IMG/VR virus record: IMGVR_UViG_3300022559_000024
Span: 1-7,028 of that record
Direction: 5' to 3' (one strand)
From: a virus
Length of the DNA stretch: 7,028 bases
The first letter of the stretch is position 1. Every line of letters starts with the position of its first letter. Below are positions 6,118 to 6,644 of this stretch, one piece after another. Below the pieces are notes generated by a model. It was given only the letters and a program-made list of their open reading frames with translations. It had not been told where the DNA came from and did not search any database. The position numbers were made by a program, and so were the translations under genes.

Positions 6118-6217
6118 GAACTGATAGCAGTTAGCGAGATCCTGGACGAGATCCTGCAGGAAATTTGATAGCAATTTTGCTCGAGCAGATCCAGCTGCAG
6201 GACGAAAAATGCTAGCG
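6118..6217. promoter_or_regulatory. Three phased TGCTA(G/T)C-type boxes (44-bp spacing) plus short tandem repeats: candidate operator array
   Basis: tgatagca occurs at 6122-6129 and 6166-6173, and tgctagcg at 6210-6217. The flanks are A/T-rich (aaatt..atttt, aaaaa..). cgagatcctg is repeated at 6135-6144 and 6147-6156. Confidence 0.55.
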
Positions 6218-6511
6218 GCGATAGCCAGGGCGCAGCACGTTGGACGGCTCGAACATATCGCCCTGGCCGGCAATCTCCGCGAGCTGCACAGCGGCAGAAT
6301 GCGCGTCAGAGAGAACACGCTGGAGCACCTGAACACGTTCACGCTCTTTCCTGAGCTGGTCACGAAGATCGGCGACTTGATCGTTAAGACTAACGGCCCT
6401 GTGAGCAGCAGCGATGAATGCCTGGCTGGCAGTGCCCTTGCCGGTCAGGAGTTTGATTTGGCGGATCAGATCGATTTCAGGATCGCGGATGGTGATGGTT
6501 TTGCCTGACAT
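6212..6511 (-). CDS. 99-aa putative DNA-binding protein (RHH-like N-terminus plus coiled coil)
   Basis: MSGKTITIRDPEIDLIRQIKLLTGKGTASQAFIAAAHRAV is followed by a heptad-like VADLRDQLRKERERVQVLQRVL. GGGGA lies 9 nt upstream of the ATG. The composition is more protein-like than the overlapping ORFs 6209..6508(+) and 6115..6363(-). Confidence 0.6.
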   Translation of the reverse strand: MSGKTITIRDPEIDLIRQIKLLTGKGTASQAFIAAAHRAVSLNDQVADLRDQLRKERERVQVLQRVLSDAHSAAVQLAEIAGQGDMFEPSNVLRPGYRR

Positions 6512-6523
6512 GCTGATTTCCCC

Positions 6524-6644
6524 GTGCTAGCAAATTATCCCGCCGGCGGCGCCGACCAGGTGCAAAATGCTATCAGTTCCATCGAGAGAAATGCCACCAA
6601 TTTTCACCCTGGAACCAGGTAATCGATCGGTAATTTGCTAGCAC
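6524..6644. promoter_or_regulatory. Intergenic control region bounded by a perfect 14-bp inverted repeat, with a third box in between
   Basis: gtgctagcaaatta (6524-6537) is the reverse complement of taatttgctagcac (6631-6644). tgctatca lies at 6568-6575. A -10-like GATAAT (reverse complement of 6534-6539) abuts box 6525-6532. Confidence 0.6.

Follow-up and report, generated by a model that had tools for sequence, protein, structure and literature searches.

We analysed a 7,028-nt stretch of viral DNA (positions 1 to 7,028 of IMG/VR record IMGVR_UViG_3300022559_000024; hereafter, the window), in which copies of an 8-bp palindromic box lie on either side of ORF99, a minus-strand open reading frame (ORF) for a protein of 99 aa. 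Comparison with related loci indicates that the boxes are almost certainly the binding sites of the ORF99 protein encoded between them. Taken as a whole, the region is probably a cooperative autoregulatory operator array belonging to a portable module with cis- and trans-acting parts. Ownership of the boxes by ORF99 and conservation of their geometry are shown by these comparisons; we infer in addition that each box is bound by one ribbon-helix-helix (RHH) dimer, that helices bridge the dimers, that binding represses the gene and that the module has a role in maintenance. An RHH autoregulator with an operator array is a known kind of system. The unusual features here are the fixed 44-bp pairing of the boxes, the presence of sites on both sides of the gene, a conserved terminal peptide, an adjacent paralogue that lacks this tail, and a spread across phages, a satellite and plasmids.

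The boxes and their geometry

A preliminary description of the region had listed six copies of the palindrome TGCTA(G/T)CA. Scanning both strands for TGCTAKCA, we found exact copies starting at 6122, 6166, 6525, 6568 and 6636; the third of the listed copies (6210–6217, TGCTAGCG) matches at only seven of eight positions. The full inventory consists of five exact TG[C/A]TA[G/T]CA boxes, this 7/8 copy and a probable degenerate seventh, all within 6122–6643 (Table 1). The seventh, at 6591–6598, is probably a decayed box; relatives have an exact box there, 22–24 bp upstream of the box near –65 (signed positions are relative to the ATG of ORF99). Start-to-start spacings are 44 and 44 bp (6122/6166/6210) and 43 bp (6525 to 6568), as reported earlier, and the interval of 68 bp between 6568 and 6636 becomes 23 + 45 bp once the degenerate box is counted.

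The earlier view that so many copies are unlikely to arise by chance was well founded. Seven strand-matches to TGCTAKCA were observed against 0.47 expected, a number reached in none of 200 shuffles. Confinement to the region, which had also been proposed, holds for all but one site: TGCTAGCA with at most one mismatch occurs seven times in the genome, six times inside 6122–6643 and once at 1478. The sole further site of the TG[AC]TA[GT]CA type is TGATATCA at 4631. The shuffles, the confinement and the enrichment in related loci (below) together exclude a chance origin of the boxes. The flanks are A/T-rich, as had been noted, but the suggested AATT/AATT form was not seen; they are A-rich 5′ and T-rich 3′, with the consensus aaaaT-TGCTAGCA-tTTTt. 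With their flanks, the –132 and –21 boxes make up a perfect 14-nt inverted repeat (6524–6537 / 6631–6644).

Related loci, cited below by numbers prefixed with L, came from an IMG/VR contig, the Pseudomonas phages 36-2, vB_Pae_U10 and silverpheasant213 (GenBank), Stutzerimonas and Pseudomonas genomes, metagenome contigs carrying distant family members, and Pseudomonas plasmids. In all 22 related loci examined (homologue identity 29–93%), 8-bp and mostly palindromic boxes lie 5′ of the ORF99 homologue in a single geometry. It had been pointed out that equal density elsewhere in related genomes, coupled with a lack of positional conservation, would speak against a regulatory role. Neither was found: in 15 loci, exact boxes number 60 in 12 kb around the homologues versus 9 in 95 kb elsewhere, and their positions are conserved. 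Box pairs sit near –133/–89 and –65/–21 in nearly all loci, with a within-pair spacing of 43 or 44 bp in every clade and a between-pair gap that varies (22–34, 55 or 66 bp). The conserved unit is a pair of boxes separated by 43–44 bp rather than a simple phased run. A box at –16 to –29, directly followed by the Shine-Dalgarno sequence, is present in nearly all loci that have boxes upstream, and the counterpart of the –64 box of the window lies at –60 to –73. Arrays reach up to nine boxes, of which just two to four, at the promoter, are universal.

Many loci also carry boxes 3′ of the gene, which in close relatives form a 44/44 triplet beginning at the stop codon. The stop-codon box is the same 7/8 copy as in the window in L001–L003, L005 and L006, and is exact in L004. 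In L007 the downstream triplet has been removed by a precise 92-bp deletion, and distant family members have no downstream boxes, which argues that the upstream pairs are the core of the module. Asymmetric boxes such as TGATAGCA are in direct orientation as often as inverted within pairs; this mixture fits a symmetric protein dimer on duplex DNA and does not fit hairpin pairing.

Two other features of the spacers and units were seen. A CCWGG-containing core, often (T)TG(C)ACCTGGTG, lies ∼12 nt from a box in all related loci, whatever the box class, and such cores are present in the spacers of the window (e.g. 6555–6561 and 6614–6620). Two units, the distal upstream and the first downstream one, look like inverted copies of the proximal unit.

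Box sequence, the ORF99 protein and its paralogue

Across the family, box sequence shifts with the N-terminal β-strand of the homologue, and the geometry stays fixed throughout. The box TG[CA]TA[GT]CA goes with the strand xT[IL]R[DN] in 13 loci (the window, L001–L008, L016, L017, L022 and L023). The other strand types are TIMIRH, with TGTTAGCA or TGCTAACA (L012, L013); TVLIRD, with TGATATCA (L020); ML[VI]K[FIL], with TGGTACCA (L010, L014, L015, L021); and [IV]Q[VI], with TCATATGA (L018, L019). This co-variation provides strong comparative evidence that the family recognizes the boxes directly. With five box types matching five strand types, and plasmid Drgb7 as a partial exception (see below), it suggests that sequence-specific recognition is mediated by the β-strand. 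Assuming that the strand turns its hydrophobic residues towards the protein core, its central outward-facing position would carry Thr in the CTAG class, Lys in the GTAC class and Gln in the ATAT class; pairing of Lys with guanine and of Gln with adenine would be chemically sensible. The preliminary description had taken the boxes for operator-type sites of a cooperative dimeric regulator and had named three candidates, the products of ORF99, ORF78 and ORF66. Box positions in the 22 loci, along with the β-strand co-variation, support the idea of such sites and point to ORF99 as the regulator.

ORF99 has 15 close homologues, and its family comprises 91 clusters among 1.84 billion representative proteins, mostly of ∼85 aa. 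Searches of Pfam, NCBIfam and PDB sequences with ORF99 returned coiled-coil noise and no family model, and PADLOC gave a single weak match (PDC-M05B, E 0.003). The AlphaFold2 (AF2) model, with a predicted local distance difference test score (pLDDT) of 84, has an extended segment (residues 1–12), a helix (13–23), a long helix (28–80) and a short C-terminal turn, and so contains the β-strand and two-helix topology of an RHH domain. The β-strand is K4-D10 (KTITIRD), and it forms part of an N-terminal pattern conserved in the family, T-I-R-D...K..T-G-K-G-T-x-S-[QK]-A, which includes a G-x-[ST]-type turn before helix B. FitA-like RHH (PF22513) is the only family to recur in profile searches, matching 7 of 50 full-length members and 7 of 17 N-terminal domains (best E 3.8e-5); ORF99 of the window itself gave no match to it. 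The N-terminal profile found its best PDB match in the RHH antitoxin 7e4j (E 0.065), the top Foldseek matches of ORF99 are MazE-mt1, NikR, Arc and FitA (E 4–8, not significant), and hhalign places KTITIRD of the ORF99 N-terminal domain on SVVIRN of FitA with a probability of 19%. ORF99 is thus predicted to be a FitA-like RHH protein whose second helix continues for ∼50 residues into a coiled coil.

Outside the DNA-binding segment, the most conserved part of the family is a C-terminal motif, Q-x-D-[LMI]-[FLI]. In ORF99 it reads G82-Q-G-D-M-F87 (QGDMF at 83–87). The broader pattern Q-x-x-[LMI]-[FLI] is present in 70 of the 91 representatives, at a median of three residues from the C-terminus, compared to 5% in shuffles. 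Position 3 is Asp in 65 of these 70, and position 2 is usually Gly rather than an aliphatic residue.

The neighbouring ORF78 has the β-α-α fold and long helix of ORF99 and lacks the C-terminal Q-x-D-Φ-Φ tail (where Φ denotes a hydrophobic residue). Family alignments of the two match over their full length in hhalign (probability 86%, E 4.7e-6), on which basis ORF78 and ORF99 are judged to be distant paralogues. An ORF78 homologue lies directly upstream of the ORF99 homologue in six related loci. Because a box sits on or beside the stop codon of both genes, an old tandem duplication of gene plus box is suggested. We also considered ORF78, one of the binders proposed earlier, as the reader of the boxes, and rejected it: ORF78 is 58% identical between the window and L015, though the L015 boxes are TGGTACCA.

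Mechanism and alternative explanations

In the mechanism we propose, one RHH dimer would read one 8-bp palindrome, TG(C/A)TA(G/T)CA, through its two-stranded β-sheet. Dimers would be coupled, presumably through the long helices, and the boxes would therefore be used in pairs 43–44 bp apart. The proximal pair (–64, –21) would lie on either side of the ORF99 promoter and leader, its last box abutting the ribosome-binding site; given this arrangement, occupancy should repress ORF99 (negative autoregulation). The upstream pair, together with the 44/44 triplet that begins at the stop codon, would extend the complex over the entire gene. ORF99 and its sites would then make up a self-contained cis/trans module that moves between replicons and is likely used to maintain the episome or, by means of the C-terminal peptide, to recruit a host factor.

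Promoters in two related loci bear on the repression step. L018 has a σ70-like promoter matching at 10 of 12 positions, TTGACC-17-TATCAT, whose –10 element lies over the –22 box and whose –35 hexamer is the conserved CCWGG-type spacer motif TTGACCTGG. L017 has one of equal quality, TTTACA-16-TG-n-TATCAT, with its –10 element on the –69 box. Overlap of the –10 element with one of the two proximal boxes in both loci supports negative autoregulation. As to whether the –65 box itself serves as an extended –10 element (TGnTAnnAT), L017 agrees and L018 places the –10 element on the –22 box instead.

Several observations weigh against the proposed mechanism. A pair spacing of 44 bp corresponds to 4.2 helical turns, and a dimer of dimers would need to span ∼150 Å to bridge it. 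A scan of the window for σ70-type promoters found none, and the candidate ORF99 promoter identified by eye (Table 1) has a spacer of 20 nt. The downstream triplet is missing from many family members, L007 included. Every fold match for the ORF99 protein of the window itself is sub-significant (Foldseek E > 4, hhalign 19%). Finally, the homologue on plasmid Drgb7 has a TIRD strand yet its boxes are TGATTGCA, which indicates that the β-strand alone does not fix specificity.

The module is not tied to one kind of replicon. It accompanies Phage_CRI initiators, a Rep_1 initiator (L010) and a P4-like primase element (L003, also an 11.2-kb plasmid), and it occurs in the maintenance regions of 35–57-kb Pseudomonas plasmids. 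As these contexts share no other element-encoded gene, any partner of the module would be ORF99 itself or a universal host protein. On Drgb7 (L024, KT351738, 5007–5792), the boxes are spaced by 44/23/43 bp, and only 3 nt separate the family member from the 171-aa PemK/MazF-like toxin gene that follows it (Pfam E 4e-9). This pair may be a genuine toxin-antitoxin system built on the ORF99-family RHH scaffold.

One alternative is that the array is a centromere-like or hitch-hiking site for segregation or positioning of the episomal replicative form, with no nucleoside triphosphatase (NTPase) of its own. The C-terminal peptide would then engage a host machine, and autoregulation would be a by-product, as in ParR/parC. 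The locus does have the anatomy of ParR, ParG and ω systems (RHH protein, repeats over its own promoter, conserved terminal peptide). The module is, moreover, portable between replicons that are unrelated and lies within maintenance regions of plasmids, and the phages have been recovered as 6.9-kb and 13.8-kb ‘plasmids’. We count in favour of this explanation, too, that the authors describing the Pseudomonas inovirus PMBT54 proposed a maintenance role for its ω-like RHH ORF (PMC10534721). However, ParA, ParM and TubZ are absent from the window and from the surroundings of the homologues, and the only P-loop protein in the window is Zot. The likeness of a repeat array at its own promoter is one of anatomy only; the universal part of the array is just two to four boxes, and multicopy rolling-circle replicative forms hardly need active partition. 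Literature searches on inovirus partition or centromeres and on 44-bp repeats returned nothing relevant, and those on TGCTAGCA only cloning primers. On balance, we consider a centromere possible but rather doubtful. Another possibility is an NTPase-less tether, in which box-bound ORF99 oligomers would capture a universal host hub, most plausibly the β sliding clamp, through the near-invariant C-terminal peptide, and tail-less ORF78 would act as a non-recruiting competitor or partner. The C-terminal motif resembles the one that binds the β-clamp, Qφx[L/M][F/L], an example of which is QADMF in Pol III α. Gly at position 2 of the clamp motif weakens model peptides (PMC11139829). We regard such a tether as unlikely.

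Descent of ORF99 from a FitA/VapB-type antitoxin, kept against a host or rival toxin, would make the boxes an inherited toxin-antitoxin operator. The recurrent FitA-like_RHH matches, the likeness to MazE-mt1 and FitA in Foldseek and to 7e4j in the PDB profile search (E 0.065), and the toxin gene that follows the Drgb7 homologue all point in this direction. Yet the stop codon of ORF99 in the window is followed by boxes and non-coding DNA, with no toxin gene, and among the loci examined a recognizable toxin stands beside the homologue only on Drgb7, several loci having short uncharacterized downstream ORFs. Furthermore, a long coiled coil ending in a five-residue motif is unlike toxin-wrapping tails, and up to nine boxes exceeds the usual toxin-antitoxin operator, making an orphan antitoxin quite improbable. 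Even less probable is that the boxes act as hairpin stems in the packaged strand, for complementary-strand priming, packaging or XerCD attP function. The region does lie between a putative folded attP and a structured non-coding region, and the upstream array folds better than shuffles (z –4.0), but that folding is owing to a single 14-nt perfect inverted repeat, and the fold of the downstream array is no stronger than background (z –0.8). Direct and inverted asymmetric boxes are equally common in pairs, the same arrays occur on a P4-like double-stranded DNA element and on theta-type plasmids, and box sequence tracks the protein. The preliminary description had also mentioned immunity operators, serving a repressor of lysogeny or replication, and the boxes do lie within ∼0.5 kb of the regulatory region. 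But the gene divergent from gII is ORF66, which is 63% identical to the annotated ‘repressor’ of Pseudomonas phage 36-2, and in relatives the ORF99 module is found together with unrelated HTH_3 repressors. The ORF66–gII intergenic region (5535–5644) contains no box; it has inverted repeats and two copies of a palindrome of its own, GTAACGCGTTAC(AG), at 5553–5566 and 5587–5600. The immunity function most likely lies with ORF66 and these palindromes, so that such a function for the boxes is highly improbable, and the suggestion that ORF66 binds the boxes is not supported.

Comparison with known systems helps to place the negatively autoregulated array that we favour. FitA/FitB of N. gonorrhoeae (PDB 2bsq) resembles it in the RHH N-terminal domain, which belongs to the same Pfam family (by a weak match), and in the strand, the x-I-R-[DN] motif of the ORF99 family aligning with VVIRN of FitA. 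The FitAB operator is reportedly TGCTATCA-N14-TGATAGCA, i.e. the same box, and the FitA protein sequence used here matches 2bsq. FitAB places an RHH dimer on every 8-bp half-site and links two such dimers into a higher oligomer across the promoter (PMC3920265, PMC3378870). ORF99 differs in having no PIN toxin, so the bridge would be its own long helix; in a pair spacing of 44 bp start-to-start versus 22; in up to nine boxes on both gene sides; in the C-terminal Q-x-D-Φ-Φ; and in being a solo gene in phages and plasmids. ParR/parC (R1, pB171), ParG/parH (TP228) and ω (pSM19035) are likewise portable cis/trans cassettes on extrachromosomal elements, with a small RHH protein, repeats over its own promoter and a terminal partner peptide. 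In contrast to these, ORF99 has no cognate NTPase gene and no sequence match, and their repeats are contiguous 7–11-bp units rather than 8-bp palindromes in 44-bp pairs.

MetJ also recognizes one 8-bp palindrome per RHH dimer, and arrays of two to five met-boxes bind it cooperatively. Met-boxes, however, are adjacent (8-bp period) with direct dimer contacts, a co-repressor is involved, and the targets form a chromosomal regulon rather than a self-flanked gene. F-plasmid sopC consists of twelve 43-bp repeats with one inverted-repeat SopB site each. It is similar in period (43 vs 43–44 bp), in having one short palindrome per repeat and in lying beside the binder's gene, but SopB is a ParB-type helix-turn-helix protein and CTPase that works with the SopA ATPase and has no homology to ORF99. 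The ORF99 homologue of phage 36-2 is labelled ‘7NUV-like’. The relaxosome proteins F TraM and pLS20 Aux combine an RHH domain with an oligomerization helix, and several of their sites lie upstream of their own gene, beside a rolling-circle origin; contact with a partner is made by a different region of the protein (PMC8829557). ORF99 has no relaxase or conjugation context, its module also accompanies theta-type and primase replicons, and it gave no significant sequence or structure match to TraM or Aux.

Genome context and significance

The window holds a circular inovirus genome of 6,951 bp and Pseudomonas type. Its first 77 bases are repeated at its end (1–77 = 6952–7028), from which we deduce a circularly permuted genome of this length. 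Most genes are on the minus strand, with ORF78 and then ORF99 following past the wrap-around (Table 1). The closest protein relatives are from Pseudomonas and Ectopseudomonas. Megablast against a phage collection gave a 126-bp match alone, indicating that the collection holds no close sequenced relative. An Rfam search of the window gave no match.

Table 1. Boxes, candidate promoter and genes of the window
Feature	Position	Strand	Description
Box at +382	6122–6129		TGCTATCA on gene strand; end of downstream 44/44 triplet
Box at +338	6166–6173		TGCTATCA on gene strand
Box at +294	6210–6217		TGCTAGCG, 7/8; cGCTAGCA on gene strand; holds ORF99 stop codon TAG
Box at –21	6525–6532		TGCTAGCA; Shine-Dalgarno GGGGAA (gene strand) directly after
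Box at –64	6568–6575		TGATAGCA on gene strand; paired with –21 box, 43 bp
Probable degenerate box at –87	6591–6598		TGCCACCA; TGGTGGCA on gene strand, 6/8
Box at –132	6636–6643		TGCTAGCA, right after ORF78 stop (TAG-g-TGCTAGCA)
Candidate ORF99 promoter	6534–6565	–	TTGCAC (6565–6560)-N20-GATAAT (6539–6534); by eye
ORF99	6511–6212	–	99 aa; phrog_8031 (function unknown), E 3e-24
ORF78	6881–6645	–	phrog_13909, E 1e-30; AF2 pLDDT 88
ORF66	5645–5845	+	divergent from gII; phrog_5219
gII	5534–4497	–	Phage_CRI and G2P_X_C
gV-like gene	4254–3901	–	single-stranded DNA-binding protein
Zot/gI	1371–544	–	assembly ATPase
Further genes			major coat protein, 481-aa adsorption protein, gVI-like gene

Two structured regions lie near the module. 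The non-coding segment 5846–6121, in the sense of the packaged strand, folds as single-stranded DNA (ssDNA) at –70 kcal/mol (z –4.3) into several long GC-rich hairpins. It is probably a packaging signal and/or the complementary-strand origin, and a 53-aa ORF within it (5858–6019) is most likely spurious. On the other side, 6880–6965 plus, via the wrap, 1–15 contains two inverted dif-like arms, on the gene strand TTCGCATAATG-GCCGG-CCTTATGTTGAGCGGCGTCCGGA...TCCGGGCGTCGGTTAACATAGG-GCCG-ATTATGCGA, with an ssDNA fold of –32 kcal/mol. These arms look like a CTXφ-type folded attP for XerCD, and the second contains the ORF78 start codon. Similar arms lie 5′ of the cassette in L001, L004–L008, L012 and L015–L019; in phages without ORF78, the attP arm directly abuts the first box.

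Related elements are found both integrated and as plasmids. L008 and L009, on a single 328-kb metagenome scaffold, represent the same inovirus twice in tandem, ∼6.9 kb apart; tandem prophages are typical of CTX-type integration. Among deposited P. aeruginosa ‘plasmids’ are relatives of the phage that measure 6,964 bp and 13,799 bp; the 13,799-bp entry, with its two phage copies, is probably a dimer. The P4-like element (L003) likewise has a plasmid entry, of 11,242 bp. From these deposits it follows that the inovirus relatives and the P4-like element persist as episomes. In the chromosome of Pseudomonas sp. GD04019 (L006, 5570–8978), the ORF78/ORF99 cassette is accompanied by the downstream non-coding region and an ORF66-like gene, and ∼0.4 kb beyond its end lie aminoglycoside phosphotransferase genes of the strA-strB type (APH(6), APH). 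This locus looks like a truncated prophage beside a resistance insertion. L007, a 6,965-bp contig of the same strain, is a related and seemingly complete phage.

Non-structural genes are very few in small inoviruses, whose accessory ORFs mostly lack a known function. Our comparisons propose a DNA target and a likely mode of action for one such family, phrog_8031, for which Pfam has no model. Inoviruses from several host groups carry members of this family, as do a P4-like satellite plasmid and Pseudomonas plasmids. The family offers a natural specificity series, in which one scaffold and one geometry are combined with at least five 8-bp palindromes matched to different β-strands, and hence a compact system in which to study or engineer DNA recognition by RHH proteins. 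If real, a tether of the kind considered above would couple the episome and the host replisome, in the service of copy control, inheritance or complementary-strand synthesis. More generally, recruitment of a host factor by the C-terminal peptide, if it occurs, would make the module a new link between episomal phages and host replication or segregation.

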